Shown here: piece after piece, positions 9,675 through 55,636 of the stretch | Layout of the letters: each line of letters begins with the position of its first letter | Numbering within the stretch: position 1 is the first letter of the stretch | NCBI GenBank assembly: GCA_965216785.1 | Contig: OZ244197.1 | Coordinates: 506,041-570,040 of the forward strand | Direction of reading: 5' to 3' | Origin: Thermodesulfobacteriota bacterium | GTDB lineage: Bacteria; Desulfobacterota_D; UBA1144; Nemesobacterales; UBA2774 | Length of the DNA stretch: 64,000 bases | Notes under the pieces: model-generated | Seen by the model: only the letters and a program-made list of their open reading frames with translations | The model's database searches: none | What the model was told of the DNA's origin: nothing | Program-made: the position numbers and the translations under genes

Positions 9675-10422
9675 CTTGAGCTCCTGAATCTACTGTCGGC
9701 ACCTCAAAATTTACTACTCCCATATCGCTCGAGCTGATGTTTATATAGGCCTGCTTAAGACCTAAATTGTCTGCGTGCTGAATAATACTTTCAAGCTTGC
9801 GCCATTTTCTGTACACGTCGCCCCTGTCGAACACGATATGTCTTCGGTCCGTTGTATATAGATTTATTCCGTAAATATTATCTATATGGATCTCTGATAT
9901 CTCGCTCCAATCGAGAACACTGCTATTTGATGATAAATCCAATATCTGTAAGGCTTCTTTCAATAGATCCGAGTTTTCTATACCATCGCCGATCAGAACA
10001 GGAAAATCAAGGCCTTCATCAAATTTAGCCGTACCGAGTATTTTGCCGGTACTGCTTAAATAGTGCGGACTGCCGTCTGAGCCAAAGACAAGGCAGTAAA
10101 CCTTTTCCTCTTCAATATCAATATGTACCCTCTTGGGAAATTCTTTATGGACCTTGACGCTGTGGATCCAGGGATTTTTCAAGATATCTTTTTCTACCCT
10201 GTCCTCAAAGAAAAAAATGCTGCTCTCACCGAGCCTTAAGCCCGATCTTTGCAGTATTTCTTTCTCTGAAATCTTCTCGTTACCGGCGACTGTTACTTCA
10301 TGCACGGTAAATACCCCGAGGCTGATTGTAATGTACGTGCACACACCAAACACCGCTATTACCAGCAGTACCGTAAGCACCTTGGCCGCCTTTACGAATA
10401 ACGCTTTTCTCTCTTCGCTCAC
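9667..10422 (-). CDS. ftsQ: Cell division protein FtsQ (POTRA domain, single TM)
   Basis: N-terminal TM helix then POTRA-like region (TVHEVTVAGNEKISEKEIL). Overlaps ftsA start by 8 nt. Confidence 0.85.
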   Translation of the reverse strand: MSEERKALFVKAAKVLTVLLVIAVFGVCTYITISLGVFTVHEVTVAGNEKISEKEILQRSGLRLGESSIFFFEDRVEKDILKNPWIHSVKVHKEFPKRVHIDIEEEKVYCLVFGSDGSPHYLSSTGKILGTAKFDEGLDFPVLIGDGIENSDLLKEALQILDLSSNSSVLDWSEISEIHIDNIYGINLYTTDRRHIVFDRGDVYRKWRKLESIIQHADNLGLKQAYINISSSDMGVVNFEVPTVDSGAQDG

Positions 10423-13749: not shown

Positions 13750-14891
13750 TTTATTCCTGATCTAGATACGTTGAGTATTATTCCTACAGCCGCAAGTGTG
13801 GTTACAAGTGAGGTGCCGCCATAGCTAATGAACGGTAGTGTGAGACCTTTAGTGGGGAAAAGTCCGACAGCGACAGCCATGTTAATACCGGCCTGAAGAG
13901 TGATCAGCATAATACAGCCAAATACTAAATAGCATCCGAAAAGATCCGGCGCCCTGAGAGACACCCTCAAACTTCTAATCAATAGAACAGCAAATCCGAT
14001 TATTACTAGCACTATGCCTATGAAGCCAAGCTCTTCACCAATTATGGAGAAAATAAAATCCGTATGCGCCTGAGGAAGGAAGAAGAGCTTCTGAGTACTG
14101 TCCCCGAGCCCGGCGCCGTAGATGCCGCCCATAGCGAAAGCGATGAACGATTGTATAGCCTGATAACCCGATCCCAGCGGGTCCTGCCAAGGGTCGAGGA
14201 ACGAGGTTACCCTCTTCATCCTATAACCCTTCGTTACGACCGCGAGTACCATGAATATTATCGAAACAAGCCCTACGGGGATCATGTACTTTAATTTCAC
14301 ATCGCCAATGAACATCATACCGAATAACACCACCAGCACAGTGGTTGCCGTGCCGAAATCGGGCTCTAAAAGTATTAAGACTATATACACTCCCGCAATC
14401 ATTATGTGGGAGGCGAATCCGACTACGAAATTATCCAGTTTATCCCGCTTTTTTGTAAGGGAATGTGCTAGATACAGAACTAATATATACTTTGCGATTT
14501 CTGAAGGTTGGAAGGTGAATATACCTAGATCAATCCATCTCTGCGCTCCGCCCACCTGCTTTCCGATCCCAGGCACCAGGACGAGCACCAGCATCACTAG
14601 CCCCACAAGGTATGCGGGGTAGACAAGCTTTCTTAAGTGTCTGTAATCAAATAACATCAGCAAAACCATTGAGGTTAAACCCATTAAGAGATAAATGCCG
14701 TGACGCTTCAGAAAGTAGTGGGTATCCCCGTACATCTCAAGCGAATATACGGAGCTTGTGCTGTAAACCATCAGCACGCCCATCGAAGTCAGAAATAGAG
14801 CGGACAGGACAACGCCTATGTCGTAACTGTTTCCCTCAACTGTATCGAATATTTTCAACAATTTCCTTGAATCTCCTTCCTCTGTCTTCAT
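13746..14891 (-). CDS. ftsW: Peptidoglycan glycosyltransferase FtsW (SEDS family); start uncertain, the track ORF extends to 15032
   Basis: Multi-TM SEDS protein. The longest ORF overlaps murD by about 200 nt. The internal ATG at 14889-14891 (MKTEEGDSRK...) reduces the overlap to 56 nt and is more plausible. Confidence 0.85.
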   Translation of the reverse strand: MKTEEGDSRKLLKIFDTVEGNSYDIGVVLSALFLTSMGVLMVYSTSSVYSLEMYGDTHYFLKRHGIYLLMGLTSMVLLMLFDYRHLRKLVYPAYLVGLVMLVLVLVPGIGKQVGGAQRWIDLGIFTFQPSEIAKYILVLYLAHSLTKKRDKLDNFVVGFASHIMIAGVYIVLILLEPDFGTATTVLVVLFGMMFIGDVKLKYMIPVGLVSIIFMVLAVVTKGYRMKRVTSFLDPWQDPLGSGYQAIQSFIAFAMGGIYGAGLGDSTQKLFFLPQAHTDFIFSIIGEELGFIGIVLVIIGFAVLLIRSLRVSLRAPDLFGCYLVFGCIMLITLQAGINMAVAVGLFPTKGLTLPFISYGGTSLVTTLAAVGIILNVSRSGIK

Positions 14892-16173
14892 ATGATTTAA
14901 ACATATCAAAACTCGAGCAAGCGGGTGAAAAAAGTACCGAGTCCCGGGGTTCCATATTATCCAGCGCGCTTTGCACCGCACCTTTAAGTGAATCTGAAAG
15001 TATGGACCTGACACTCCCGCCAAGCTCTTCACTCATCCTTTGCCTTGCCTCTCCGATTAATACCAGCACTTTTACCTTTTCATTGACTATGTTTTTTAGC
15101 GCATCATAGCTTACTCCCTTGTCCTTTCCGCCCGCGATCAGGATCACTGGAGCCTTTGTGCTCTCAAGCGCGCTCAGCGTAGCGCCCGGGCTCGTGGATT
15201 TAGAGTCGTTATAGAAGTAAGCCCCCCTGATCTCCCCCAGATACTCGTTTCTATGGGGAAGCGGGTCAAACTCGATTACCGCCTTTCTTATTTGCGCGGG
15301 CTCACAGCCAAGAGCGCTCGCCCCTGCTATAGCCGCCATAATATTGTCTATGTTATGGCGTCCTCTGAGCTTCATCCCGCTTAACTCATACATCTCACTG
15401 CCGTAGCGGACACAGCACCCGTTATACGATACAGCGTTTTCAGATAGAGCGTCACCGAAGGGGATTTTTGTTGCACTCACCTGGGATAAGCGTTTATTTA
15501 TCTCCTCGTCATCCGACTTGTAGATAAATATGTCGTCGCTCCCCTGGTTCGCAGCGATCTTCATTTTTGACTCTATGTACTCAGTGTAGCTTTCGTGATG
15601 GTCCAGGTGGTTTGGGGAGATATTGAGAACTACCGCTATATCCGGCCTGAACTCCGATACCCCCTGGAGCTGAAAACTGCTGAGCTCTAGCACCAATACG
15701 TCGTACTCGCTGTCTTTGCCCGCGATAGTTATTAGCGGAGTGCCTATATTCGCGCCCAGAAAAACTTTTTTTCCGCATGTTTTTAGTATCTCTGAAATCA
15801 GAGTGCAGGTAGTCGTCTTGCCGTTAGATCCGGTAACGGCAATTATGGGTTTGGTAATAAACCTTGACGCAAGCTCCACTTCGCTTATAACCTCGATCTC
15901 TTCCTCGATAGCTCTTTTGACCTCTGGGGTCGCAAAAGGAACTCCGGGGCTCAGCACAATAAGCTCAGGCCACAAAAAGCTCTCGACCGTGTGCCCGCCG
16001 GACTCTACCTCTATAGCCCTAGCGCCAAGCATTTCGATCTCGTTTACCAGCTTTTCAGGAGGCGACATATCGCTCACCCTGACTTGGGCGCCTCTTTCCC
16101 GCAAAAAGAGCGCAGTTTCCAAACCTGTTTTTCCAAGTCCGACAACAAGTACTTTTTTATCTTTCAAGTCCAT
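14836..16173 (-). CDS. murD: UDP-N-acetylmuramoylalanine--D-glutamate ligase
   Basis: VLVVGLGKTGLETALFL N-terminus and GSNGKTTT P-loop. Confidence 0.95.
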   Translation of the reverse strand: MDLKDKKVLVVGLGKTGLETALFLRERGAQVRVSDMSPPEKLVNEIEMLGARAIEVESGGHTVESFLWPELIVLSPGVPFATPEVKRAIEEEIEVISEVELASRFITKPIIAVTGSNGKTTTCTLISEILKTCGKKVFLGANIGTPLITIAGKDSEYDVLVLELSSFQLQGVSEFRPDIAVVLNISPNHLDHHESYTEYIESKMKIAANQGSDDIFIYKSDDEEINKRLSQVSATKIPFGDALSENAVSYNGCCVRYGSEMYELSGMKLRGRHNIDNIMAAIAGASALGCEPAQIRKAVIEFDPLPHRNEYLGEIRGAYFYNDSKSTSPGATLSALESTKAPVILIAGGKDKGVSYDALKNIVNEKVKVLVLIGEARQRMSEELGGSVRSILSDSLKGAVQSALDNMEPRDSVLFSPACSSFDMFKSYEDRGRRFKEIVENIRYS

Positions 16174-16217
16174 ATTAAATCCCTGTTACTATCACAGCAA
16201 TGCCATAGTCCGAAAAG

Positions 16218-17327
16218 CTATCTCAATTTAAGCGTCGAAAGCGCGCAGAGCGCCAGTACAAGCGACACAATCCAAAACCTTATTACAACTTTTGATTCAG
16301 ACCACCCGCTAAGCTCGAAATGATGGTGAAGAGGGGCCATCTTAAATACCCTTTTCCCTGTGAGCTTGAATGAAATAACCTGGATTATCACTGACATCGC
16401 TTCGAGTACAAATATTCCTCCTACAATAATAAGTAGAAGCTCCTGTTTTATTATAAGCGCCACCGAGCCTATTGCCGCCCCGAGCGCGAGAGATCCCACG
16501 TCCCCCATAAATACCTCAGCCGGGTGAGAGTTGTACCACAGAAACCCAAGACACGCGCCGCCGACAGCGGCCATAAACACGGCTAGTTCCCCTGCCCCCT
16601 GAATGTTAGGTATCTGCAGGTATCTAGAAAACACCACGTTCCCGGCAAGATAAGCGAAAATAATATATGTAGCCGCCGCGACAGCTATAGAGCCTATCGC
16701 GAGACCGTCCAAGCCGTCGGTCAGGTTGACGCCGTTTGACGCGCCCACTACTACTATTAATGCGAAGACTACATAGAGCCAGCCCATGTGAATCACAGCC
16801 TGTTTGAAGAACGGCAATACAACAGAAGTAAACGGCAGGTTCTGAACCTTCTCCGCGCTCACAGCCATAGAGAAGCCATTCATGTAGCTTACGACCAGAA
16901 GTACGAAAAGGAAGCCGAACACAAGCTGGAGCGATAATTTTAAGCGTCCGCTCATTCCCTTTCCTTTGGAAAATTTTAGCCAGTCGTCTATAAATCCGAT
17001 AAGAGCGTAGCTAAGCGTGAACAGAAGAACGTACCAGATTACGAGACTTGTAAGATTAACCCAGAGTAATGTTGATACTAATACCGCCACCACTATAAAG
17101 GCCCCGCCCATCGTGGGAGTACCGGCTTTCGAATGGTGGCTTTCAGGGCCGTCGTCCCTTATGCTTTCTTTAAACTGTCTCTTTTGTAGAAACCTTATAA
17201 ATACCCCGCCCAAAATTATGCTTATAAGAAACGCCGTTACACCAGCCCCTAGCGAGCGGAAAGTAATGTATTTAAACACATTGAAGAGAATAAAGTCTCC
17301 TTTATATAGATAAAGAAGATGTAACAT
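16218..17327 (-). CDS. mraY: Phospho-N-acetylmuramoyl-pentapeptide transferase
   Basis: 10-TM protein with MraY signature KxGTPTMGG and DDxxK. Confidence 0.95.
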   Translation of the reverse strand: MLHLLYLYKGDFILFNVFKYITFRSLGAGVTAFLISIILGGVFIRFLQKRQFKESIRDDGPESHHSKAGTPTMGGAFIVVAVLVSTLLWVNLTSLVIWYVLLFTLSYALIGFIDDWLKFSKGKGMSGRLKLSLQLVFGFLFVLLVVSYMNGFSMAVSAEKVQNLPFTSVVLPFFKQAVIHMGWLYVVFALIVVVGASNGVNLTDGLDGLAIGSIAVAAATYIIFAYLAGNVVFSRYLQIPNIQGAGELAVFMAAVGGACLGFLWYNSHPAEVFMGDVGSLALGAAIGSVALIIKQELLLIIVGGIFVLEAMSVIIQVISFKLTGKRVFKMAPLHHHFELSGWSESKVVIRFWIVSLVLALCALSTLKLR

Positions 17328-17341
17328 CCAGTAAGCGCTCC

Positions 17342-18703
17342 TTAACTCAATTTTTTAATTACTTCTTCCATCCGCATGCCGCGCGATCCCTTAACCAACA
17401 CCAAATCGCCCTCGCACGCATAACTTGTAAGAGCAGACGCTGCTTCTTCGTGAGTGGCCGCGTGTACGCCCTCGGTCCCGTTTGAAAGCGAGTCCAGCAC
17501 GGCGGCTCCGAAATTACCGTATGTGATTACGTAATCTACTCCTGCTGAAGATAGGTACTCCCCTATCCCTTTGTGCTCGGACAGAGCGGCTTCGCCAAGC
17601 TCAAGCATATCACCTACTACTGCTACCGCTCGACCGCCGCCTTTCAGGCGCATTAGCTCATCTATAGCCTTTCTCATGGAGTCGGGATTTGCATTGTAAG
17701 CGTCATTTATGACCTTAAAACCCTGCGGCACGTCGCTCACCTCGAGCCTCTGTTGCACGGGCCTGAACTTCTCGAGGCCCTCTCTAATCTCATCAGCCAT
17801 GCATCCAAGCCCATAGGCAATCCCCGCTGCGCACAGAGCGTTCATAACGTTGTGAACTCCGATGGTGTGAAGTGTGACGGGAAATCCCTCACCCGCGATG
17901 CTCATATAGAATTTAATTCCGGTGAAGCCCTTTTCCTCTATCGAGTCTCCCGTGATAAATGAGCCTTTGGACTCTATACCGTATGTAATTTTTCGGCAGT
18001 CCGCTTCATCGGCTATATGCTGCACCCTATCATCATCTGCGTTCACGACAAATACACTGTTCTTACCAAACCCCTCGACTATCTCCGCCTTTGCTTTAGC
18101 CACCCCTTCTATACCGCCGAGTTTTTCCAGGTGAGCCCTACCAATATTTGTTATGGCCCCCACATCAGGCCGCGCGATCTGAGACAGCCTACTTATCTCA
18201 CCGAACTCGTTCATACCAAGCTCGACTACAGCCATCTCATAACTATCGTCAAGTTCAAGAAGCGTCAGCGGAAGTCCGATAAGATTATTAAAATTACCCG
18301 TATTCTTAAGAGTTCTATAATTTTGCGACACTATACTCCATGTCATTTCTTTCGTGGTAGTTTTTCCGTTTGAGCCCGTAATTGCGGCAAGCTCTATATC
18401 GCTCAACGAGCTTCTCCAATTCATGGCAAGGTCACCGAGCGCTCCTAGGGTAGATCCGACCTGCACCAGTCTTGCGTTTTGTATTAAGTTCTCCGGGACC
18501 CTCTCCACAACCGCGGCTGACGCACCTTTTTGGAAAGCCTCTTCGATAAATTTGTGCCCGTCAAAGTTCTCACCCCTAAGGGCAAAAAACACATCACCCG
18601 GGCTTATAGTCCTGGAATCGGTTGAAACGCCCTTTACTGATCCCGCGTCCTCGCCAGAGACAAGCTTGCCCTTTGTTGCTTTGAGTAAAAAGCTAAGCTC
18701 CAA
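17342..18703 (-). CDS. murF: UDP-N-acetylmuramoyl-tripeptide--D-alanyl-D-alanine ligase
   Basis: Mur ligase, AITGSNGKTTTKEM. Confidence 0.93.
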   Translation of the reverse strand: MELSFLLKATKGKLVSGEDAGSVKGVSTDSRTISPGDVFFALRGENFDGHKFIEEAFQKGASAAVVERVPENLIQNARLVQVGSTLGALGDLAMNWRSSLSDIELAAITGSNGKTTTKEMTWSIVSQNYRTLKNTGNFNNLIGLPLTLLELDDSYEMAVVELGMNEFGEISRLSQIARPDVGAITNIGRAHLEKLGGIEGVAKAKAEIVEGFGKNSVFVVNADDDRVQHIADEADCRKITYGIESKGSFITGDSIEEKGFTGIKFYMSIAGEGFPVTLHTIGVHNVMNALCAAGIAYGLGCMADEIREGLEKFRPVQQRLEVSDVPQGFKVINDAYNANPDSMRKAIDELMRLKGGGRAVAVVGDMLELGEAALSEHKGIGEYLSSAGVDYVITYGNFGAAVLDSLSNGTEGVHAATHEEAASALTSYACEGDLVLVKGSRGMRMEEVIKKLS

Positions 18704-26214: not shown

Positions 26215-28140
26215 CTACCGATTGGCGCAGAAGCCGAAATTCTGCGTGCCTCCCGGCTGAACAGTATTGTTCCAGGACACACCTTCGGCTGTAACGATAC
26301 CGCCGCTCTGTGTATATGTCGCGTTCCACATATTCCTTACAGTCCCGTCAATCGAAAACGATACTATCCAGTCTTGAGGTGAAGAGCCCGAATTAGACAC
26401 CGTTACCTGAGCGCAGTAACCCGATCCCCAGTCGTCATTGATGGCAACGGTTGCGGTAACATCCCCTCCGCCGGGAGGCGCATTAAACTCGTCGTCATCA
26501 TTTGCGCTGCCGCACCCCGGGTCCGCGGGATAGTCCGTAAGACCGTCACTGTCGTTGTCTATACCGTCAGAGCATGCGAACACAGGCGGGGGCGGTGTCG
26601 GCGCAGGAGTCGGAACAGGAGTAGGCTCCGGAGGTGCAGCGCGGTCCGCACAGAAGCCGAAATCCACCGAATTCCCCGGCGCTACCGTATTATTCCAGGA
26701 CACTCCCTCTACCGTAACTTCATCCCCAGACTGTGAATACTCGGCATTCCACATATCCTTGACCGTTCCCTCAATACTAAAGCTAACCACCCAATCCTCT
26801 GTGCTGCTGCCGTTATTCGTAACCACTACCTGGGCGCAGTAACCCGATCCCCAGTCGTCGTTGATGGAGACAGAGGCTGTGACATCCCCTCCGCCGGGAG
26901 GCGCGTTAAACTCGTCATTGTCTGTTGCGGAGCTGCATCCCGGGTCGTCCGGATAATCTGTCAGACCGTCGCTGTCATTGTCGATGCCGTCAGAGCATGC
27001 GGCTACAGGAGGAGGCGGTGTAGGGGTGGGAGGAGGCACATTGCCGTCCATCAGCTGGCTCAGCAGCGCCACTTTATCGTCCCAAACACTCTGCCAATCG
27101 TCCTGTAGTATCCCGCCCGTGTCCCCGCTGTTCGGGTTCCACGACCAGTAAAAGAAGTTAGTCATCCCCTTCCCATCCATCCAGTTTATCAGGGCGTCCT
27201 GCCAAGTCTTGTCTCTTGGGTCACCGCCGTTTCCGTACCTGCCGCCGAACTCACCGATGATGACCGCATAGCCCCTATCCACAAGATAGCCGAAATGCGT
27301 TTCCCAGATTGCGGGCATATTTCCCGGAAATCCGGAGTCGTTGAAGTAGGGCTGAACAAAAACGTCCGGTCCGTAAACGTGCGGGCTTAGTACGAGCTTA
27401 TCCTCGGGAATATTGAGCGGAAAGCAAGAGAATGGTTCCAGATTTCCGCCCCACCAGTGCTGAATGGAGCCCGAGCACGTAGGGTTTTCCTGAACCCCCT
27501 GGACGAAGATCAAGATATTAGAGTTAACCGCGAGAACCTCAGAAGCCGCAAGCTCGGCTGCCCGTTTCCAGTCGGTTGCCGCATCTCCGGTGCCCCAGGT
27601 CGCGGGGCCGTGAGGCTCGTTTTTTATATCTATGGCAAAGAAACTCTCTATATTGCTATATCTGTCCGCCAAGAATGTCAGGTCGTCTATCCAGTCCTGC
27701 TCGGAATAGCTCCCCGTGTACCATAACTCTTCGATAGTCTGACAGTCCGAAGTATGGTGATCGAGGAGTATGTAAAACCCTTGCCTGTCGAGCTCCTCTA
27801 CCACCTTGTCCATGATATCCAGAGACCCGAGTCCCTGAAGATCGGAGTTTGCCGAATAGTTTATGCTCGACGGTGTTACGTTGTCCAGAGTTCTGGGACA
27901 GAAAGGAAGTCTTATCGCCGTAAAGCCGAGCCCCTTAATCTGCTGAATCATATCCTTCCAGTTCCGGGCCCACAAACCGTGTACTACGTTATTATTGGTC
28001 TCAAAACCAAACCAGCTCACGCCGTACAGGTTTACTTCCTGAGCCTGCTCGTTAAATACCTTGCCGTCCTCGACGTAATAAGCCCGGACTGGCAACGTTA
28101 TACAAACCAATACAAAAAACGCTGTAAGTACTAAGCGCAT
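26215..28140 (-). CDS. Secreted glycoside hydrolase family 5 endoglucanase with two C-terminal CBM2 carbohydrate-binding modules
   Basis: Signal peptide MRLVLTAFFVLVCITLPVRA. GH5 catalytic motifs NEP (acid/base) and IGEFG (nucleophile). Two Pro/Thr-rich linkers each followed by a CBM2-like module (W..GY.AQV.V.N.G....W.V.F...G......WNA.Y.QSG....GVSWN....PG....FGFC). Confidence 0.88.
   Translation of the reverse strand: MRLVLTAFFVLVCITLPVRAYYVEDGKVFNEQAQEVNLYGVSWFGFETNNNVVHGLWARNWKDMIQQIKGLGFTAIRLPFCPRTLDNVTPSSINYSANSDLQGLGSLDIMDKVVEELDRQGFYILLDHHTSDCQTIEELWYTGSYSEQDWIDDLTFLADRYSNIESFFAIDIKNEPHGPATWGTGDAATDWKRAAELAASEVLAVNSNILIFVQGVQENPTCSGSIQHWWGGNLEPFSCFPLNIPEDKLVLSPHVYGPDVFVQPYFNDSGFPGNMPAIWETHFGYLVDRGYAVIIGEFGGRYGNGGDPRDKTWQDALINWMDGKGMTNFFYWSWNPNSGDTGGILQDDWQSVWDDKVALLSQLMDGNVPPPTPTPPPPVAACSDGIDNDSDGLTDYPDDPGCSSATDNDEFNAPPGGGDVTASVSINDDWGSGYCAQVVVTNNGSSTEDWVVSFSIEGTVKDMWNAEYSQSGDEVTVEGVSWNNTVAPGNSVDFGFCADRAAPPEPTPVPTPAPTPPPPVFACSDGIDNDSDGLTDYPADPGCGSANDDDEFNAPPGGGDVTATVAINDDWGSGYCAQVTVSNSGSSPQDWIVSFSIDGTVRNMWNATYTQSGGIVTAEGVSWNNTVQPGGTQNFGFCANR
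26218..27000. repeat. About 420-bp tandem direct repeat (about 80% nt identity) encoding the duplicated linker + Ca-loop + CBM2 module of the GH5 gene
   Basis: Long shared nucleotide strings are visible directly, e.g. gcgcagtaacccgatccccagtcgtc...cccctccgccgggaggcgc and gaccgtc(a/g)ctgtc(g/a)ttgtc(t/g)ataccgtcagagcatgcg. Confidence 0.8.
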
Positions 28141-38627: not shown

Positions 38628-39401
38628 GTGAACCCGGGCTTAAAGCTAATAGGAGCTATTATGCTACTACTAATATCGACTTCTTATTCAAGCACCCTCT
38701 CAACAGCCGAAGAACATCAGGATTCTCTCTTTCAGACCGCTATCCTGCAGTCTCTTGTAGATGGAGTGTACGACGGAGACTTAACTGTAGGGGAGTTAAA
38801 AGAGCACGGCGACTTCGGAGTGGGAACATATAACCGGCTTAACGGAGAGATGGTGGCTCTTGACGGCGTCTTTTACCAGGTTAAGTCAGACGGCAAAATA
38901 GAAATCCCGGATGACTCCACAAAAACCCCCTTCGCGATAGTAACATTTTTTGATACCAATGAAACTATGAAGCCCCATAGCAAGATGAGCTGCGAAGAAC
39001 TTAAAAGCTATATTGAAAACGCCCTTCCCGCTGAAAACATATTCTACGCAATAAAAGTTCACGGGAGTTTTGAATATATGAAGACCAGGAGCGTACCCGA
39101 GCAAACAGCGCCGTATCCGCCCCTTAGCGAAGTGGTTAAAATAGAGTCAAAATTCGAATTCAAGAACATTACCGGAACCATCGTAGGACTATGGTTGCCC
39201 GAGTATATGGACAATATAAATCAGCCAGGATTCCATTTTCATTTCATATCGGACGACAAAAAATCAGGGGGACATGTGCTGGACTGTAAAACGGAGGATG
39301 TAGTAATAGAGATAGATTACATGAGAGAGCTCGATCTCGATCTTCCAGACACGGAAGGCTTTAATAACGCTGAGCTTACGGAGCCAAAAAAGGAAAATTA
39401 G
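38628..39401 (+). CDS. Alpha-acetolactate decarboxylase (AlsD/BudA family), with N-terminal signal peptide
   Basis: LFQTAILQSLVDGVYDGDLTVGELKEHGDFGVGTYNRLNGEMVALDGVFYQ matches the ALDC N-terminal core. Hydrophobic leader LIGAIMLLLISTSYSS. Confidence 0.8.
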   Translation: MNPGLKLIGAIMLLLISTSYSSTLSTAEEHQDSLFQTAILQSLVDGVYDGDLTVGELKEHGDFGVGTYNRLNGEMVALDGVFYQVKSDGKIEIPDDSTKTPFAIVTFFDTNETMKPHSKMSCEELKSYIENALPAENIFYAIKVHGSFEYMKTRSVPEQTAPYPPLSEVVKIESKFEFKNITGTIVGLWLPEYMDNINQPGFHFHFISDDKKSGGHVLDCKTEDVVIEIDYMRELDLDLPDTEGFNNAELTEPKKEN

Positions 39402-42556: not shown

Positions 42557-42666
42557 AGCAACTTCCACACATGCTTTACATCTAATATCAAAGTATCGGT
42601 CGTTCACAAAAAGTTTTGATATCTTTTGACATTTATATTATAAATGTGATGGAGGGAAAATATCCA

Positions 42667-44652
42667 ATGGCTGAAACAACTCGACAAGCTAAAAAACATA
42701 AAAGCTGGTACAAAGTGCTCGAGCACGGCGAGCTTCCGGAAGGGAGGGTAACTACCAGGACTTGCCGGAACCTAACCTTATGCCTCAGTAGACACGGGGG
42801 CAAATACGGAGCGCTCGACAACAAATGCCCTCATCAGGGGGGGCCGCTCGGGGAAGGATCTATCGAGAACGGCTGGCTCAGGTGTCCCTGGCACGGATGG
42901 GACTTTGATCCTATTTCCGGGAAATCGCCCGGAGGGTTTGAGGACGGCGTACCTGTATTTGAGATAGAAGAGCGGGACGACGGAATATATGTCGCGCTTG
43001 AAGATTTGGGAGAACATCAGAGAACAGTTACCGATCTTATGGCCGAGACAATGGTAAATTGGGGAATCAAGCATGTATTCGGCATGGTAGGACATTCGAA
43101 CCTCGGGCTTGCGGACGCGCTGAGGGTTCAGGAGGAGAAAGGGAATATCTCCTACATAGGAATACGTCACGAAGGGGCTGCTGCTTTTGCGTGCTCGGCT
43201 TACGGCAAGCTCACAGGGAGACCCGCGGCGTGTCTTGGAATCGCAGGACCCGGATCAACTAACCTACTAACCGGACTTTGGGACGCGAATGTGGACCGAA
43301 GCCCAGTGCTTGCTCTGAGCGGCCAGGTAGATACGCAGGTGCTGGGCCCGGGGGCTTTTCAGGAAGTGGACCTGCAGGCAGCTTTCGGCAAGGTGGCTCA
43401 ATGGACCCAGACCGTGCTTCAAACGAGTAAGCACGCAGAGCTTGTAAACCTGGCACTCAAGAGCGCCATACTGAACAGAGGGGTATCTCATCTGATTTTC
43501 CCGGACGAGGTACAGACGCTACCTGCAAAAGACGAGGCAAAAGCCGGCAGCCCTGTAGGCAGAGTGACACCGCTTACAATCACCCCGCCAAGGCAGACGT
43601 TAAACGAAGCGATAAAACTTATAAAGAAAGCCGAGCGGCCATCGATTATCGTAGGGCACGGCGCAAGGTTTAATATGGATTCTATAACAGAGCTTGCACA
43701 GAGCCTTAGGTGTCCGGTGTTTACGACATTTAAAGGCAAGGGGCTTATCCCTGACAACCATCCACTCGGTTGCGGTGTACTCGGCAGGAGCGGTACTCCA
43801 ATAGCGAGCTGGTTTATGAACGAGTCGGACCTGCTCATAGTGTTTGGGGCGAGCTTCAGTAACCACACAGGAATATCATCGAAGAAGACGATCATACACG
43901 TGGACTTTGACAACATGGCTTTAGCTAAATTCCACCCGGTCACAGTGCCGGTTTGGGGCGAGATCGGTATTACCGCAGAGCTTATAAAAAAAGCGGTGAA
44001 AGGAAAAGCTAAATCCAAGGACAGAAGAAAAGAGATAGCAAAACGGTGGAAGATATGGCGGGAGGAGAAAGAAAGCCGGAGAAAAGACGAAAGCTCTGTC
44101 GGGCTTAGCTCGTCCTATATATTCGAGGAGCTTTCTAATCACTCTCCAGAGGATGCCATAATAGCAGTCGATGTAGGTAATAACACATATTCGTTCGGAA
44201 GATACTTTGAATGTAAAAAACAGTCGATACTGATGTCGGGCTATCTGGGCTCTATCGGGTTTTCTCTTCCCGGTGCGATAGGGGCATGGACAGCGACCCA
44301 GGAAGATGACCCGAGGTTCAGAGGACGAAAGGTAATATCCGTCTCCGGGGACGGAGGGCTCGGGCAGTATCTGGCAGAAGTAACTACAGCAGTTAAATAC
44401 GGGATGAACATTACCCATGTGCTCCTTCACAATAAAGAGCTTGGGAAGATTTCAAAAGAACAGCGCGCCGGGAACTGGGAGGTATGGCAGACTTCTCTGC
44501 ATAACCCGAACTTTGCCGACTACGTGAACTCCTGCGGAGGGCTTGGAGTAAGGGTTACCAAAAAATCGGAGCTCAGAAGGGCTCTCAAAAAATGCTTCAA
44601 GCATAATGGGTTTTCAATGGTCGAGATTATGTCCGACCCGGATTTAATTTAG
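42667..44652 (+). CDS. Fusion protein: N-terminal Rieske [2Fe-2S] domain + thiamine-diphosphate enzyme of the pyruvate oxidase/acetolactate synthase superfamily
   Basis: Rieske ligands CPHQGGP...CPWHGWDF. Then TPP Pyr domain (WGIKHVFGMVGHSNLGLADAL...GIAGPGSTN), a middle domain, and a PP domain with GSIGFSLPGAIGA...SGDGGLGQ...HNKELGKI. A Lys/Arg-rich insertion sits between the middle and PP domains. RBS GGAGGG precedes the ATG at 42667; the track ORF starts at 42616. Confidence 0.85.
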   Translation: MAETTRQAKKHKSWYKVLEHGELPEGRVTTRTCRNLTLCLSRHGGKYGALDNKCPHQGGPLGEGSIENGWLRCPWHGWDFDPISGKSPGGFEDGVPVFEIEERDDGIYVALEDLGEHQRTVTDLMAETMVNWGIKHVFGMVGHSNLGLADALRVQEEKGNISYIGIRHEGAAAFACSAYGKLTGRPAACLGIAGPGSTNLLTGLWDANVDRSPVLALSGQVDTQVLGPGAFQEVDLQAAFGKVAQWTQTVLQTSKHAELVNLALKSAILNRGVSHLIFPDEVQTLPAKDEAKAGSPVGRVTPLTITPPRQTLNEAIKLIKKAERPSIIVGHGARFNMDSITELAQSLRCPVFTTFKGKGLIPDNHPLGCGVLGRSGTPIASWFMNESDLLIVFGASFSNHTGISSKKTIIHVDFDNMALAKFHPVTVPVWGEIGITAELIKKAVKGKAKSKDRRKEIAKRWKIWREEKESRRKDESSVGLSSSYIFEELSNHSPEDAIIAVDVGNNTYSFGRYFECKKQSILMSGYLGSIGFSLPGAIGAWTATQEDDPRFRGRKVISVSGDGGLGQYLAEVTTAVKYGMNITHVLLHNKELGKISKEQRAGNWEVWQTSLHNPNFADYVNSCGGLGVRVTKKSELRRALKKCFKHNGFSMVEIMSDPDLI

Positions 44653-48492: not shown

Positions 48493-50367
48493 CTATGACT
48501 CTCCCGGACGCTCCCAAGCATGATCGTTATCTTCCTCTATATCTTCCTGATCGGATTTCAGAAGATCTATCAGGTCCTGGTTTTTCTCCTTGGTCTTTTC
48601 TATAAACGCTTTTTCATCCTCGGACTCCAGCACGTCGTATAACTCTACAAGATGCTTTTCATCATGGTGCTTGAAATTGAGCGCCGCGCGGTGCGCTTGG
48701 TAACCATGAAACCCGAGCATCCTGAGCGCGCTTTCACCAAGCTCAATCGCTGACGCAAAAGTCTCCCTCTCTATAACCTTAACCCCCGCATCCATTAACT
48801 CATAGGTATGTCTTCTATCAAAAGAACGGGCTAAAATCTGTAAATTGGGGAAATGCTTCCTGACAGTGCGCGCTATCTCTATTGCCTTGTCTTTGTCATC
48901 CACGGCCAACACAAAGAGCTTTGCGTCCTGAGCGCCCGCGGATGTAAGTAGATCAAGCCTCGAAGCGTCGCCGTAAAACACTTTATATCCAAATCTTCTT
49001 ACCATATCTATCTGGCTCGGCTTATAATCCAGCACCGTTGTACCGATATTATTCGCATGCAGCAGTCTACCGACGATCTGGCCGAATCTTCCAAAGCCCG
49101 CTATGATGACGGGGTTTTTCTCATCTATCTCGTCAGGATCCCTTTTCTCGCTAAGGCTCTTAAAGCGGGGCTGTATAAGAAGCTCGTTAATTATCATCAT
49201 GATCGGCGTCATCATCATCGAAAGCGCGATCACTAATATGAGGGTGCCGGATATATACGCCGGAATCACATTATTTTGTGTAGCAAAAGAAAAGAGCACG
49301 AATCCGAACTCGCCCCCCTGCGCGAGTGAGAAGGAGAACAAAAAGTTTTGGCTCATATTCATTTTGAAGACTACGCCGAGTATGAACAAGATAATGAGCT
49401 TTATAGAAACGAGCACCGCGACGAGACCTAAGATTAGATAGGGTTCTTGCATAAATAGATTAAAATCAATGCTCGCCCCCACAGAGATGAAGAATAGACC
49501 GAGCAGGAGTCCTTTAAACGGCTCGATATCGGATTCGAGCTCGTGTCGGTATTCGCTATCGGCCAGAACCACGCCTGCTAAAAAGGTTCCCAAGGCTGGA
49601 GACAGCCCTACGAGCTGCATAGAAAGAGCGATACCTATAACGAGAAATAGAGCGAACGCCGTGAATATTTCTCTTAACCTGGTCTCGGCGATAAAGCGGA
49701 AAGCGTAACGGGCTAAGAACTTGCCGGCTATAATTATAGTTCCGATGAGCGCTGTCACTATCAGCGCTTGCTGCCACCCCGGCAGTGCTTCAACGGGTGA
49801 TTCGCTATGACCCGCTCCGGATTCCGCACCGATAAACGGTACGCTTGACACTGCAAGAAGCGGGATTAATGCCAGCATGGGTATTACTGCTATATCCTGA
49901 AACAGGAGCACTGAGAAACTCGAGCGGCCTCCTTCTGAATTCATTAAGCCTTTTTCGCTTAGGGTTTGAAGCACAATGGCGGTTGAGGACAGGGCCAAAA
50001 TAAGGCCTACTGCAAGAGATATCCTCCAACCGAAATCAAGCGCGAAAGCAAGTGCCCCTATAACAACAGCGCTCAGAAGCACCTGAAGGCCGCCAAGTCC
50101 CACTATGGGCCCTTTTAGCTTCCATAGTCTTGAAGGCTGCAGCTCTAGCCCGATCAGAAACAGCATCAGCACTACGCCGAACTCGGCAAAGTGCATTACC
50201 TCCCCCGTCTCAGTACCAACAAACTTGAGCGCAAAAGGTCCTATAATCACGCCCGCTAGCAAGTAACCAAGCACCGATCCAAGCCCTAAACGCTTGGCGA
50301 TAGGGACAGAAATTACCGCTGCAAGTAGGTATATGAATGCCTGAAATAAGAGATTATCACTTCCCAT
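48493..50367 (-). CDS. kefC: Glutathione-regulated K+-efflux / CPA2 family cation:proton antiporter with C-terminal RCK (TrkA-N) domain
   Basis: About 13 TM helices, then a Rossmann motif IIAGFGRFGQIVGRLL. Acidic C-terminal tail. Confidence 0.85.
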   Translation of the reverse strand: MGSDNLLFQAFIYLLAAVISVPIAKRLGLGSVLGYLLAGVIIGPFALKFVGTETGEVMHFAEFGVVLMLFLIGLELQPSRLWKLKGPIVGLGGLQVLLSAVVIGALAFALDFGWRISLAVGLILALSSTAIVLQTLSEKGLMNSEGGRSSFSVLLFQDIAVIPMLALIPLLAVSSVPFIGAESGAGHSESPVEALPGWQQALIVTALIGTIIIAGKFLARYAFRFIAETRLREIFTAFALFLVIGIALSMQLVGLSPALGTFLAGVVLADSEYRHELESDIEPFKGLLLGLFFISVGASIDFNLFMQEPYLILGLVAVLVSIKLIILFILGVVFKMNMSQNFLFSFSLAQGGEFGFVLFSFATQNNVIPAYISGTLILVIALSMMMTPIMMIINELLIQPRFKSLSEKRDPDEIDEKNPVIIAGFGRFGQIVGRLLHANNIGTTVLDYKPSQIDMVRRFGYKVFYGDASRLDLLTSAGAQDAKLFVLAVDDKDKAIEIARTVRKHFPNLQILARSFDRRHTYELMDAGVKVIERETFASAIELGESALRMLGFHGYQAHRAALNFKHHDEKHLVELYDVLESEDEKAFIEKTKEKNQDLIDLLKSDQEDIEEDNDHAWERPGES

Positions 50368-50402
50368 AATTTATATGCCCTAAAAATTATATGCTCCCAA
50401 TT

Positions 50403-51032
50403 TTACATGCTCTTGGATTTATACTTTTCCAGAAAGTAACCATTAATATATTCAAACTCCTCAAGCGCCGCTAAGTTTATTTCCTCATCTCTTAGGGTTT
50501 TAATTATTTCTCCGTATAGCTCTTTAGACACTTCTATGTCTTGATACTTTTTTGAACCCGAAGCGTCGTGCACAACAAAAGGCGGCAGGTAATGCATTCC
50601 GCAGAGCACAGCCGATTGCTCAAAGGGTTTTAGAAAATCCCTAACGTTATAATAATGAATTCCGTCCCTGCTGTACGAATTGAAACTACCACCCGCGGTT
50701 ATGGCATTCATCATCATTTTTCCTTTTAAAGCCGTGCCCTGGTGTCCGTAAGCAAAACCGAACTCGAGCACCAGATCTTCCCATTCTTTTATGATGGCTG
50801 GAGAGCTGTACCAATAAAATGGATGTTGAAACACTATCACGTCATGCTCCAATAGGAGCTCCTGCTCCTTCTCAACATCTATAAGAAAATCCGGGTACAG
50901 ATCATACAAATCCCGGAAGGTAACACCTTCCAGCTCATTTACGGCTTTGATGAGCTGGATATTAATCCTGGACTTTTGCAAAGCCGGATGGGCAAAAATA
51001 ATCATCACTCTGTTTCGTATATTCTTAGACAT
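50403..51032 (-). CDS. kefG: KefG/KefF-type flavodoxin-like NAD(P)H oxidoreductase (Kef ancillary subunit)
   Basis: VMIIFAHPALQKSRIN...VIVFQHPFYWYSSPAIIKEW is typical of KefG/MdaB-like proteins. Immediately upstream of kefC, as in E. coli kefGB. Confidence 0.8.
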   Translation of the reverse strand: MSKNIRNRVMIIFAHPALQKSRINIQLIKAVNELEGVTFRDLYDLYPDFLIDVEKEQELLLEHDVIVFQHPFYWYSSPAIIKEWEDLVLEFGFAYGHQGTALKGKMMMNAITAGGSFNSYSRDGIHYYNVRDFLKPFEQSAVLCGMHYLPPFVVHDASGSKKYQDIEVSKELYGEIIKTLRDEEINLAALEEFEYINGYFLEKYKSKSM

Positions 51033-51254: not shown

Positions 51255-51845
51255 CTAAAAGGTTAAGCTTTGCAAGGATTGATCCAGATCATCTGCGAAT
51301 ACTTCACAAATATCGTCCCATTGATCTGAAATATTCGAATCGTTGAAGCTCGAAGTAAAAAAGGAAAGGTAGGACATCAGGATTTGAGCCATTCCCGAGC
51401 TTATTTCTTTAAACACAAGGTTTCTTTCGGCCTTCTCGCCTGTCCATCCTTTATATAGATTCCGTGCCGTAGCGTCTGAGATGCGATTTTGTCGGACATG
51501 GAGAAGTCTTAGATGAGAGTATTTATCCGAAGCGATATTTGCCAGATTTGTCAGAAACTCAGTTTCAGGTTCGACTTTCATCACTTTCTCAGTAAATTCT
51601 GCACACTGGTTCAACATGATAAGCATGACAGATATAGCAGTGTAGGGATCTTTCCCTATCTTTTTATTCAGAGAGAGAAGATGCTGATCAAATTCTGAGA
51701 ATAAACGTACTAAATTATTCTCCAGTACTTCGTCGCTAGCAATTGAGCTGACTTTACCCAGTTCAGAGTTGGTCTGGTGTGTTGTCTCTTCGCTATCATT
51801 GCTTAGAACTATAATATTTCTTTTCATCGATTTATCACTATGCAC
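51255..51845 (-). CDS. Hypothetical protein (196 aa), 8 nt downstream of the MshEN-REC gene
   Basis: No recognised domain. Operon partner of the regulator gene. Confidence 0.45.
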   Translation of the reverse strand: MHSDKSMKRNIIVLSNDSEETTHQTNSELGKVSSIASDEVLENNLVRLFSEFDQHLLSLNKKIGKDPYTAISVMLIMLNQCAEFTEKVMKVEPETEFLTNLANIASDKYSHLRLLHVRQNRISDATARNLYKGWTGEKAERNLVFKEISSGMAQILMSYLSFFTSSFNDSNISDQWDDICEVFADDLDQSLQSLTF

Positions 51846-51853
51846 ATCTAACC

Positions 51854-53308
51854 TTATCCTGAGATTAACCCTGCTGCATTTGAGCTTGTGTATCTTTGAG
51901 CGGCCTCTACAAGCTCACTTGCCGCAAACGGTTTAGAGATATTTCCGTTTGCTCCCGCCATTTTTGAGCGTACTTTATCAACGAGTCCATCTTTAGAAGA
52001 CAGCATGATAATGGGTACTTGTTTCATGAGCCCGTGGCTTTTAATAATCTTGCAAACCTGGTAACCATCCATGTGCGGCAGGTTTATTTCTATAAAAATT
52101 AAGCCCGGCTTAACATCAGTTAAGCACGAGAGTGCCTCCATACCATCAGACACAGCGCTCACAGAATACCCTTGACGGTTTAAGGCAATACTTATTAACT
52201 TTTGAATCGTAGGGCTGTTATCTATAACTAAGACATTTTTATTGATCCCACTTGAACTAATATCATTTGGAGTGATTTCACTTGACGGATCATTCATATC
52301 TACAGAGTCTGAGGCAGAGGCCTGGAGTTGCTTTTCAATTTCCGGCTCGGCAGATGCCGCAAAAGGCTCATTAATTGAGTTTAAGCCCTGAGATGAAGAT
52401 GTAAGCTGGACAGGTTCCTCATTAGACTGATCCGTTCCCTCCAAAGTGTCCCCGCCAATTTGGTTCTCGTCCTCAGTCATTTCTGCGGAGTCTTTATTAT
52501 CGGGAGAATTAATAAATAGATTTTGACTAAAAACGTCTACGCCATCACCAGGGGCTGAGTCTTCTACCCGAGTCTCCGATTCTTCAAAAAAGCCGGAATT
52601 GTCAGCGTCGTTGTGCAATTCGTCAGTTTCAGATTCATCTATAAGATCTTCATTCGTATCTCTAACGGGGGGAGCGTCTATTTCAGATTCAATCTTCTCT
52701 GCATGAAAAATTTCTTCATTGAATGTTGATTGAGTATTTTCTTCTTCCAATGATCCGTTAATATCAACTTCTAAAGTATCATCGTTTTTATACCCTTCTA
52801 TCTCTTTTACTAACTCTTCTATATCTATATCTTCATTTTCAGCGGGTTTTGCCGATAATTTAGAATAATCCGTGAAATTTTTATTGTATCCGTAATACTG
52901 CGTTAACATATCAATTATGGAGCGCTCTGAAACGACTACGGGGATAATATTTTTCCCCGTTAAAAAGTTTAGTTTATCTAACAGTATTAAATTTGAGGGG
53001 TCTGACATAGCGACTGTTAATGCAGAACCTGTGATGCTCAGTGGTATAAGACGGTTCTCTATTGCTATCTCACTTGGAATAAGCTCTAAAACTTCTTGAT
53101 CTACAGAGTGGTCCTCTATGCTAATTACAGGCACACCGTAAGATTTACCGAGAAAATCCATTAGCTCAGGTTCAGTTATGTAGCCCAATTCAATTAAAGC
53201 CTCACTAAGCTCCATATCGGAATTGTACTTTTTCTCAATCGCCTCTTTTATCTGCTCCAGGCTTAAAATATCTTCTTTAACCAGAAGCTTAGCTATCTGC
53301 ATTTTCAT
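51854..53308 (-). CDS. Response-regulator receiver protein with N-terminal MshEN (T2SS-E N-terminal, c-di-GMP-binding type) domain and ~240-aa acidic disordered linker
   Basis: N-terminus LLVKEDILSLEQIKEAI...LGYITEPELMDFLGKSYGVPVI (GSPII_E_N/MshEN). C-terminus NVLVIDNSPTIQKLISIALNRQGYSV...IMLSSKDG...K (CheY-like REC). The middle (about 52190-52890) is D/E/S-rich. The track ORF starts at 53344. Confidence 0.8.
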   Translation of the reverse strand: MKMQIAKLLVKEDILSLEQIKEAIEKKYNSDMELSEALIELGYITEPELMDFLGKSYGVPVISIEDHSVDQEVLELIPSEIAIENRLIPLSITGSALTVAMSDPSNLILLDKLNFLTGKNIIPVVVSERSIIDMLTQYYGYNKNFTDYSKLSAKPAENEDIDIEELVKEIEGYKNDDTLEVDINGSLEEENTQSTFNEEIFHAEKIESEIDAPPVRDTNEDLIDESETDELHNDADNSGFFEESETRVEDSAPGDGVDVFSQNLFINSPDNKDSAEMTEDENQIGGDTLEGTDQSNEEPVQLTSSSQGLNSINEPFAASAEPEIEKQLQASASDSVDMNDPSSEITPNDISSSGINKNVLVIDNSPTIQKLISIALNRQGYSVSAVSDGMEALSCLTDVKPGLIFIEINLPHMDGYQVCKIIKSHGLMKQVPIIMLSSKDGLVDKVRSKMAGANGNISKPFAASELVEAAQRYTSSNAAGLISG

Positions 53309-53716
53309 ATAGGTTAAGAATTTTGCAAGTAGCGTGCCATACACAAATTAGTCTGTAAAATATCCATAAGCCCCCTATATCACTATATAATCTTGTACAG
53401 ACTAGTGAGTACCTAATGCGCAATTGTGACGAAAAACGTCAATATGCGACTTTAAATTCACATTTTGTAAGGGAAACACTATTTTCACTATTATGGTTTG
53501 ACTAAAATATCGATCTTATTTAAAGGTTTTTCTGCCACGATAAAAGAAGTTTAAACTAGCGTAAAGTTAACCATTAAGACGGAAGAATTAATAATTCGGA
53601 TAAAATCACGTATCAAGTGTCTAATTTTTAAAACTTCGTGCTTAAAAGTGAGGCACATTTTTTTATTAACATTTCATAAGATGCCTATTTCATTGATTGA
53701 AATGCGTTTTGATAAG

Positions 53717-53732
53717 TGGTATGGTGTTTGCA
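53717..53732 (+). promoter_or_regulatory. Putative sigma-54 (-24/-12) promoter of glnB-glnA
   Basis: TGGTATGgtgtTTGCA matches TGGCACG-N4-TTGCW at 11 of 12 defined positions. It lies about 30 nt upstream of the glnB ATG. Confidence 0.6.
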
Positions 53733-53736
53733 TTAA

Positions 53737-54099
<363 letters not shown>

Positions 54100-54169: not shown

Positions 54170-55636
54170 ATGCCCACAACAAGAAAGAAAACCAGCAAAG
54201 GAGGAAGTACGAGTATGTTTCCAAAGAAACCAGCCGATGTATTGAAAATGATTAAGGACAATAATATTGAATTTGTCGATTTTAGATTCCTTGATTTCAT
54301 TGGAACCTGGCAGCATTTTAGCATTCCCGCAAGAGAATTTGAGGCCTCAACATTCGATGAAGGCCTGGGTTTTGACGGTTCAAGCATTAGGGGATGGCAG
54401 TCAATTAACGCAAGCGATATGCTTATGATTCCTGAAGCAGCAACAGCCAGGATCGACCCGTTTTTAACTATTCCTACAATCGCGATCATTTGTGCTATAG
54501 TCGATCCTATTACACGCGAGCCTTACTCCAGAGACCCGCGTAATATTGCTAACAAAGCAAACGCGTACCTTAAGAGCAGCGGAGTCGGAGATACAGCGTA
54601 TTTCGGCCCTGAGCTCGAGTTTTTTATATTAGATGACGTAAGGTACGATCAGACAGCAAACTCGGGCTATTATTTTATAGACTCCGTGGAAGGTATCTGG
54701 AATTCAGGAGCGGACGAAGGCCCGAACCTCGGTTATAAGCCAAGACATAAAGAAGGGTACTTCCCTACCCCGCCTACAGATTCTTACCAGGACATGCGCT
54801 CGGAAATGGTTAGTGTTCTTGAGAGACTCGGGATATTGATAGAGGCTCACCACCACGAGGTAGCAACAGCCGGGCAGGCTGAAATCGATATGAGGTTTGC
54901 ACCGCTGGTACAGATGGGCGATCAGATGATGTGGTATAAATATGTTATAAAGAACGTGGCAAAAAGCTATGGTAAAACGGTCACATTTATGCCTAAACCT
55001 CTCTTTGAAGACAACGGCTCGGGAATGCACGTTCACCAGTCGATATGGAAGAAAAATAAACCCCTGTTCGCGGGAAATGGATATGCCGGAATGAGCGATA
55101 TGGCTATGCACTATATAGGCGGCATATTAAAGCACGCACCTACAATTTGCGCGTTCAGTAATCCGATTACAAACTCTTACAGACGTCTTGTTCCGGGCTT
55201 TGAAGCGCCGGTTAACCTCGCCTATTCGGCAAGAAACAGAAGCGCCGCGGTTAGGATACCGATGTACTCGCCAAGTCCTAAAGCAAAAAGGCTAGAGTGC
55301 CGCTTCCCGGACCCTTCAAGCAACGGATACCTGACTTTCTCTGCCATGCTGATGGCAGGGCTCGACGGTATAGAGAAGAAGCTCGATCCGGGCGATCCGC
55401 TGGATAAGGATATCTATGCATTGGGACCGGAGGAGCTTGCGGACATTCCATCAGTCCCGGGCACACTCGAAGACGCGCTTAAAGCACTCGAGGCAGATCA
55501 CGAATTCCTTCTCAAGGGTGATGTATTCACAGAAGACGTGATTGAGACATGGATAGACTACAAAATGGAAAACGAAGTAAACCCAATTAAACTAAGGCCG
55601 GTGCCTTATGAGTTTATGCTTTACTTTGACGTATAA
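54170..55636 (+). CDS. glnA: Glutamine synthetase type I
   Basis: GS-I beta-grasp and catalytic domains ([17 protein letters not shown]...; [12 protein letters not shown]). The alternative start at 54215 (MFPKK) also has a good RBS. Confidence 0.93.

Follow-up and report, generated by a model that had tools for sequence, protein, structure and literature searches.

The stretch of DNA analyzed here, called the window throughout, is 64,000 nucleotides (nt) of a Thermodesulfobacteriota genome (assembly GCA_965216785.1, contig OZ244197.1, positions 506,041 to 570,040), and our subject is a pair of co-oriented genes on its minus strand. The first gene encodes an MshEN domain joined through a long acidic linker to a response-regulator receiver (REC) domain, and the second encodes a small helical protein, referred to below as the partner. 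The mechanically called open reading frame (ORF) of the first gene, 51854-53344 (minus), runs from a GTG at 53344 and comprises 496 aa; as homologues open with MKMQIAKLL or MQIAKLL, the start is most likely the ATG at 53308, which places the gene at 51854..53308 and gives a product of 484 aa. Residue numbers below follow the longer ORF. The partner gene, 51255..51845 (minus, same orientation), is a 196-aa ORF whose start is probably the ATG at 51827 (190 aa), since most homologues begin there, at MKRN. Divergent from the pair lie glnB (53761-54099) and glnA (54170-55636), both assigned by Pfam. The nearest relatives come from metagenome-assembled genomes of Candidatus Dadabacteria (UBA2774 and SZUA-126), a class within Thermodesulfobacteriota in the NCBI taxonomy. 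An earlier note on this DNA, made from the sequence alone, had described this arrangement and read it as a cyclic di-GMP (c-di-GMP) sensor coupled to two-component phosphorylation. Its observation is partly confirmed: the divergence from glnBA holds, and the order of MshEN, acidic linker and REC is borne out by matches to PF05157 and PF00072 and by the composition of the connecting segment. The coupling of the two signals is not supported, as the MshEN motifs are degenerate and the receiver is without its acceptor Asp.

MshEN domain and its nucleotide-binding motifs

The Pfam MshEN family (PF05157) is matched at 83.1 bits, well above the curated cut-off of 23.1, over aa 69-153 and profile positions 1-86 of 90, as the earlier note had expected. 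With subdomain boundaries taken after the supplement of Wang et al. (2016), this match spans the MshEN_C / T2SSE_N1 subdomain alone (52886..53140, minus, aa 69-153), and the four-helix MshEN_N subdomain, the 53-residue part that binds the nucleotide, lies outside it (53141..53299, minus, aa 16-68). Both subdomains are present, as seen from ungapped alignments to PilB and MshE: the N-terminal 140 residues align to residues 4-141 of Myxococcus PilB (E 1.7e-30), to Geobacter PilB and, more weakly, to residues 6-145 of V. cholerae MshE (E 3e-17). The PilB N-domains of M. xanthus (3JC8) and Geobacter (5TSG) are closest to window residues 13-165, at about 40% identity and again without gaps. PilB, however, has ATPase domains and RLG...Q motifs, whereas the window protein is without ATPase domains and has its motifs replaced.

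MshEN domains that bind c-di-GMP carry two tandem 24-residue motifs of the form RLGxx(L/V/I)(L/V/I)xxG(L/V/I)(L/V/I)xxxxLxxxLxxQ, separated by a 5-residue spacer. The equivalent segment of M. xanthus PilB is RLGELLVRENLISVQQLRKAQEEQ-QKNGT-RIGTALVKTGAIEESKLTDFLSKQ and follows the pattern RLGELLV...Q / RIGTALV...Q. In the window protein motif I is QIAKLLVKEDILSLEQIKEAIEKK, the spacer is YNSDM and motif II is ELSEALIELGYITEPELMDFLGKS. The 5-residue spacing and the hydrophobic positions are retained; all six contact positions are altered (R>Q, G>A and Q>K at residues 16, 18 and 39 of motif I; R>E, G>S and Q>S at residues 45, 47 and 68 of motif II) and the motifs read QIA..K / ELS..S. With R, G and Q absent from both motifs within aa 16-68, the earlier label of a c-di-GMP-binding type of domain has to be dropped, and conservation of the two contact motifs, on which that label depended, is not seen. 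The same picture extends across the MshEN-REC family, in which none of 37 members matches the relaxed motif of Wang et al.; most PilB hits do. Position 1 of motif I (R9) is Arg in 0/37 members and position 3 (G11) is Ala in 32/37, while in motif II position 1 (R38) is Glu, Gly or Asp in 33/37 and position 24 (Q61) is Glu or Ser in 34/37. The hydrophobic positions equivalent to L10, L25, L29, L39, L54 and L58 are preserved across the family. Published mutants are available for these positions: in MshE, substitutions at G11 and G40 abolish c-di-GMP binding, and in the GSPII-A domain of Thermus PilF a motif-II Arg>Ser change causes complete loss of binding, Gly>Ala weakens it 10-30-fold and neither Gln can be spared. 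Because the contact residues are replaced and published mutants of the same positions lose binding, canonical c-di-GMP binding by the window domain appears very unlikely.

MshEN_N might still bind a small molecule, either c-di-GMP in a non-canonical manner or another nucleotide or metabolite, so that only the phosphorylation input would have been lost. Such a ligand sensor would fit the extreme purifying selection on the domain (nonsynonymous to synonymous rate ratio, dN/dS, of 0.012), the retained hydrophobic cluster, substitutions that are family-conserved rather than random (H, Q or N at position 1 and Ala at position 3), and the capture of less conserved Bdellovibrio sites on c-di-GMP resin. 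We nevertheless consider it unlikely, because the cation-pi Arg residues are lost, Glu in place of the motif-II Arg together with Glu or Ser in place of the Gln that contacts phosphate would be unfavorable for an anionic dinucleotide, and a protein-protein docking surface would show equal constraint.

Receiver domain and acidic linker

The receiver matches Pfam Response_reg (PF00072) at 89.9 bits against a cut-off of 30 over aa 371-482 (51899..52234, minus), and its model superposes on VicR, YycF and RR468 with template modeling (TM) scores of 0.92-0.95, a canonical fold. It is a PilG-type domain with the residue series D375 N376 ... E419 ... S ... K-P, that is, a pseudo-receiver. Aligned to CheY with MAFFT, the domain has D12=D, D13=N, D57=E, T87=S, Y106=N and K109=K. 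The acidic pair after beta1 is therefore D375-N376, in which the second Asp is absent; the conserved Ser (T87 position) and Lys-Pro (K109 position) are present, and Asn replaces the switch aromatic at Y106. Ungapped alignments to PhoP, YycF and MtrA, with livlDvmlpklDG set against lifiEinlphmDG, likewise put Glu419 at the acceptor position, and its codon, at the CheY D57 position by sequence and alignments, is the GAA at 52088..52090 (minus). The earlier statement that the domain is a complete receiver with a phospho-acceptor Asp (in LIFIEINLPHMDG) was a misreading, as the D of HMDG is not the acceptor and E419 occupies that position; of the conserved Asp and Lys, the Lys is retained and the phospho-acceptor Asp is Glu. 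Within the window subclade, Glu stands at position 57 in 10/10 members, which marks it as a fixed clade-level change and not a sequencing error; there, position 13 is N, H, S or A and position 106 is His or Asn. Asp57 is retained in 24 more distant family members (position 106 being Tyr in 12, Phe in 6 and Leu in 4), and one fusion protein of the family has Gly57. Han et al. treat loss of the second beta1 Asp in PatA-type receivers as a sign that phosphorylation is unlikely, and the residue states make phosphorylation of the window receiver appear unlikely as well.

These observations bear directly on the reading in which MshEN senses c-di-GMP, a kinase phosphorylates the receiver and the protein integrates both signals. 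Both domain families do score above their Pfam thresholds, combinations of MshEN and REC do exist, one of which, Bdellovibrio Bd2402, binds c-di-GMP with a dissociation constant (Kd) of 0.4 uM, and distant family members keep Asp57. Against this, the acceptor position of the window protein is Glu and its D13 position Asn, its six contact positions carry replacements of a kind that costs published mutants their binding, and no kinase gene lies nearby in the window. The comparison with Bd2402 (REC - MshEN_N - UNK) is also imperfect: it likewise joins a receiver to an MshEN-type module, but in reversed order, with MshEN_N only and a well-conserved site, whereas in the window protein a full MshEN precedes the receiver and the site is degenerate. 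Integration of the two signals thus seems improbable to us.

The two folded domains are connected by an acidic low-complexity linker of about 216-218 aa (52238..52885, minus), in which D+E make up 27% and K+R 5% of residues and the isoelectric point is about 4.05. Across the family the linker spans 176 to 539 aa. A short acidic amphipathic motif, DIDIEELVKEIEGYKN (52784..52831, minus, aa 172-187; consensus I-D-E-I-I-x-E-L-E-x-Y/F), recurs in 21/36 family members 20-35 residues past the MshEN domain. It is the sole conserved island of an otherwise fast-evolving linker and may act as a docking helix.

Helical partner protein

The partner has no match in Pfam or NCBIfam. By AlphaFold2 (AF2) models and homologues, it consists of an all-helical domain preceded by about 30 disordered residues. 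Of the operon with an uncharacterized 196-aa protein proposed earlier, the co-oriented gene stands, and its product can now be described as a helical domain that is usually PATAN-linked. Homologues of the partner sit on the same contigs as MshEN-REC homologues, and a profile scan of six-frame translations found the partner adjoining MshEN-REC at all of the family loci; it is a separate gene in loci L001-L004, L006 and L007 and is fused in L010 and L011. Three proteins, P0036, P0035 and P0134, are natural MshEN-REC-partner fusions, and residues 599-753 of P0036 correspond to partner residues 40-196 at 35% identity (E 9e-24). In L005 (GCA_016187835), the partner gene at 9956-10480 is split by a single in-frame stop, which may stem from a sequencing error or indicate a pseudogene or recoding; the genes downstream of it encode CheA-like fragments (a faint H-kinase_dim match plus HATPase_c).

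Searching 1.8 billion representatives with the partner profile returned 196 clusters. Among the best 150 of these 196, a PATAN/DUF4388 domain stands N-terminal to the helical domain in 64, and 4 carry REC. The Pfam scan found PATAN (PF14332/DUF4388) in neither window protein, so that the helical companion domain alone is shared. When the window receiver and partner were modeled as one chain in AF2, from an alignment consisting of the window concatenation, the 3 natural fusions and unpaired rows, the predicted TM score (pTM) was 0.83, and the predicted local distance difference test (pLDDT) of the partner rose from about 70 alone to about 90 joined to REC, despite a 28-residue disordered connector. 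The pTM and this gain in confidence suggest that the partner docks onto the receiver. The earlier proposal that a protein without an output domain might signal through the co-transcribed product is supported by these results, given the adjacency of the partner in all family loci, its fusions to REC and the joined model.

Relation to chemosensory operons

The nearest relatives of the window receiver are the TPR-REC/PilG-type receivers of type-IV-pilus-class (Tfp-class, Pil-Chp/Tax-like) chemosensory operons, whose genes likewise lie directly upstream of a gene for a helical or PATAN-helical protein; some MshEN-REC family members are auto-annotated as PilG. In loci L008 and L009 the operon is complete and reads TPR-REC, PATAN-helical (with a 4-nt overlap), CheY, ParA-like, CheW, methyl-accepting chemotaxis protein (MCP), ChpA-like CheA and CheB. 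The order is TPR-REC, stand-alone helical protein, CheY, CheW in L016 and helical protein, CheY, CheW in L015. Within the MshEN-REC family, L004 (MshEN-REC, partner, CheW) is the only locus that retains CheW. The window receiver is 47% identical to the TPR-REC receiver of L008 versus 36% to the CheY of that operon, and the L008 PATAN protein matches the partner with its C-terminal half at 31% identity (E 5e-29). Together with the shared gene order, these similarities identify the window pair as corresponding to the two leading genes of a Tfp-class operon, MshEN replacing TPR and PATAN being absent. The TPR-REC/PilG-type proteins keep Asp57 and lie with CheY, CheW, MCP and CheA, whereas the window protein has Glu57 and no nearby che genes. 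Past CheW, at 13004-17553, L004 also contains two more receivers, an OmpA-domain protein, a small Ras/Arf-like GTPase and a histidine kinase, a gene set that resembles MglA-type polarity modules.

The MshEN-REC architecture itself is not new. Wang et al. (2016, Nat Commun 7:12481, Suppl. Table 4) list it in "Deltaproteobacteria", for example Geobacter lovleyi Glov_2262, in the same order (MshEN_N and MshEN_C, then REC), and they warn that some of the listed proteins are without a recognizable c-di-GMP motif. Compared by listed architecture, their entry describes no acidic linker, acceptor-site Glu, helical partner or sigma-54 promoter, and the architecture was never characterized. What is new here is the doubly degenerate state, the obligatory helical partner with a chemosensory origin, and the probable sigma-54 control.

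Promoters and upstream elements

A predicted sigma-54 -24/-12 promoter, TGGCACGCTACTTGCA (53324..53339, minus), lies 15 nt upstream of the MshEN-REC ATG. It is the sole exact match to TGGCAC-N5-TTGCA in the window (1 observed vs 0.02 expected), and a sigma-54 element stands 15-25 nt before the ATG in L001, L003, L004, L005, L006, L007 and L010 as well, with differing flanks. Farther upstream, the palindrome TGACG-N5-CGTCA (TGACGTTTTTCGTCA, 53427..53441, no strand) is a candidate site for an enhancer-binding protein. It occurs once in the window, forms an invariant block in alignment A2 and lies 123-138 nt upstream of the ATG in 5 loci, being degenerate in L005 and L010; its position about 120 nt upstream of the predicted transcription start (near 53313) is a typical distance for enhancer-binding proteins. 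From this sequence evidence we infer that the operon probably depends on sigma-54. An Rfam scan of both intergenic regions returned nothing, a sigma-70 promoter scan performed no better than shuffles, and a terminator scan found none after the partner gene and none between it and the kefF-like gene that follows.

On the opposite side, a sigma-54-like promoter for glnB-glnA, TGGTATGGTGTTTGCA (53717..53732, plus), is also conserved; L001 has it as TGGTATGTTCTTTGCA, and L003, L004 and L006 have it as TGGTATGTTGTTTGCA. A conserved imperfect dyad, GTGCTTAAAAGTGAGGCAC (53638-53656), stands about 95 nt upstream of the start predicted for glnB from its sigma-54 element and is a candidate NtrC-type site that was also flagged as terminator-like by the pattern scan. 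The upstream dyads of the two promoters differ, being TGACG-N5-CGTCA for MshEN-REC vs GTGCTT-N7-AGGCAC for glnB. The earlier note had written of sigma-54-driven glnBA; the sigma-54 context is real, but the strongest promoter is the MshEN-REC operon's own, that of glnB being weaker.

This divergent arrangement raises the question of nitrogen control, in which the module would share its regulation with glnB-glnA through the common divergent sigma-54 region and work together with PII or glutamine synthetase, for example as an adaptor induced by nitrogen starvation. The pair is divergent from glnBA in the window, L001, L003, L004, L006 and L007 and stands one to three genes off in L005 and L010, sigma-54-type promoters are conserved on both sides, and L005 and L010 have genes for an NtrC-family activator and a PAS kinase close to the operon. 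However, the whole neighborhood is collinear in the lineage and the adjacency may be merely inherited, the two promoters carry different upstream dyads, and homologous pairs elsewhere stand in chemosensory rather than nitrogen operons, and on balance we find a role in nitrogen control quite doubtful. Adjacency to glnBA was set aside as proof of a nitrogen function for the first two of these reasons.

Selection and gene neighborhood

Between the window and L001, dN/dS is 0.012 for MshEN (99% amino-acid identity at dS 0.5), 0.084 for REC, 0.11 for the helical domain of the partner and 0.45 for the linker. By these low values the three folded domains are clearly functional. That the pair is instead a decaying, functionless remnant of a chemosensory operon might be argued from the loss of the acceptor Asp, the c-di-GMP motif and the neighboring che genes, and from the in-frame stop in the L005 partner gene. 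Both ORFs are intact in all loci but L005, however, the promoter and upstream palindrome are conserved, independent gene fusions are retained, and the constraint on the folded domains extends from 0.01 to 0.11; decay is hardly credible, and the dN/dS values led us to reject it.

The rest of the window is of a housekeeping character, with a dcw cluster (by position), murJ, gcvPT, nuoJKL, an rpoD-like gene, ftsY, ribD and others. L004 and L006 have the same gene order as the window: rpoD-like, nth, nuoJKL, glnA, glnB, MshEN-REC, partner, DUF2237, ..., glycerate kinase, NTPase, cysteine desulfurase. Since collinearity extends over this entire region in the lineage, the proximity of glnBA may reflect inherited synteny. 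Relative to L003 and L006, genes for a kefF-like flavodoxin and a kefC-like K+/H+ antiporter (48493-51032, minus) are inserted between the partner and DUF2237. L003 (CAZUDM010000010.1) shares the order nuoL-glnA-glnB / MshEN-REC-partner-DUF2237-117aa-...-glycerate kinase with the window and L006; its record is labeled "uncultured Spirochaetia", and given the shared gene order the bin is probably mislabeled or mis-binned. Elsewhere in the window, a 678-aa ORF at 42616-44652 (plus) has the unusual structure of a Rieske [2Fe-2S] domain fused to an acetolactate-synthase-like thiamine pyrophosphate (TPP) enzyme (N, M and C domains), with an alpha-acetolactate decarboxylase gene (38628-39401) about 3 kb upstream, and a GH5 cellulase with two CBM2 cellulose-binding modules is encoded at 26215-28140 (minus) amid housekeeping genes.

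Discussion

The explanation we favor, with a probability of about 0.6, is that the two genes encode a sigma-54-controlled adaptor complex, independent of phosphorylation and of c-di-GMP, that descends from a Tfp-class chemosensory operon. The adaptor would derive from the first two genes of such an operon: protein 1 would be a PilB-like MshEN/GSPII domain tethered by its long disordered acidic linker to a PilG-type receiver, and protein 2 a helical domain, normally the C-terminal half of PATAN proteins, that would dock onto this receiver. In this Dadabacteria-like subclade the receiver has turned into a pseudo-receiver, with its phospho-Asp changed to Glu and the second Asp of the acidic pocket and the aromatic switch lost, and the MshEN_N pocket has been stripped of the Arg, Gly and Gln that hold c-di-GMP. 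With these receiver and pocket residues gone, the module is predicted to be blind to both classical inputs. Control would instead have shifted to transcription, through the conserved sigma-54 promoter and its own upstream palindrome. The complex itself, with Glu at the acceptor position, may be constitutively configured, its output passing by protein-protein contact, most probably through the constrained PilB-like domain at a platform of the sort that the N-domains of PilB and GspE bind, such as that of a pilus or secretion ATPase.

A precedent for such a course is provided by cyanobacteria. Han et al. found that PATAN regulators bind PilC as well as the N-terminal part of PilB1, that PATAN and GspE_N domains co-occur, and that orphan PatA-type regulators outside chemosensory operons have lost their phosphorylation residues. 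Synechocystis PixE and LsiR are of this orphan type, having left the chemosensory operons and lost phosphorylation residues while contacting the PilB N-region and PilC. The window system differs in that its receiver and a PilB-like N-domain belong to one polypeptide, the helical domain being made as a protein of its own.

Several points weigh against our interpretation. The predicted sigma-54 leader of MshEN-REC is only 5-15 nt long and lacks a Shine-Dalgarno sequence; this is unusual and would mean that translation is near-leaderless or that the start is atypical. The leader is equally short, and likewise devoid of a Shine-Dalgarno sequence, in L001, L003-L007 and L010, and the divergent glnB has AGGAGG. 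Neither rpoN nor a gene for an enhancer-binding protein was seen in the 64-kb window, an NtrC-family activator being found near the operon in L005 and L010. The same window contains no pilus, secretion, chemotaxis or c-di-GMP-turnover genes (pil, che, GGDEF), which leaves the target machinery a matter of pure inference, and our literature search found nothing on pili or chemotaxis in Dadabacteria. The extreme constraint on MshEN could equally reflect some other ligand, and Bdellovibrio Bd1509 and Bd1596, with imperfect MshEN motifs, were still captured on c-di-GMP resin. The docking of partner and receiver was judged from pTM and pLDDT, on an alignment with 3 naturally paired rows only. In addition, Glu is not invariably phosphomimetic.

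A more far-reaching form of the proposal, which we regard as a long shot, is that the divergent sigma-54 region, present throughout the lineage, couples glnB-glnA to an adaptor that switches a pilus, a secretion system or another machine with a PilB-N platform or, alternatively, that MshEN_N has been retuned to another ligand. If the coupling were true, nitrogen status would set the abundance of a constitutively "on" pseudo-receiver complex and thereby switch the machine on or off.

Returning to the sigma-54-controlled adaptor that we prefer, its implications concern both annotation and biology. Pfam annotation as MshEN plus Response_reg cannot be taken to mean a c-di-GMP receptor and a phospho-switch. 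An uncharacterized helical domain of about 200 representative clusters is here defined as the usual C-terminal companion of PATAN and as a genetic partner of PilG-type receivers, and it offers a testable handle on the wiring of Tfp-class chemosensory outputs. The adaptor would also extend beyond cyanobacteria the phosphorylation-independence of regulators that escape chemosensory operons, and would link such a module to sigma-54 control.

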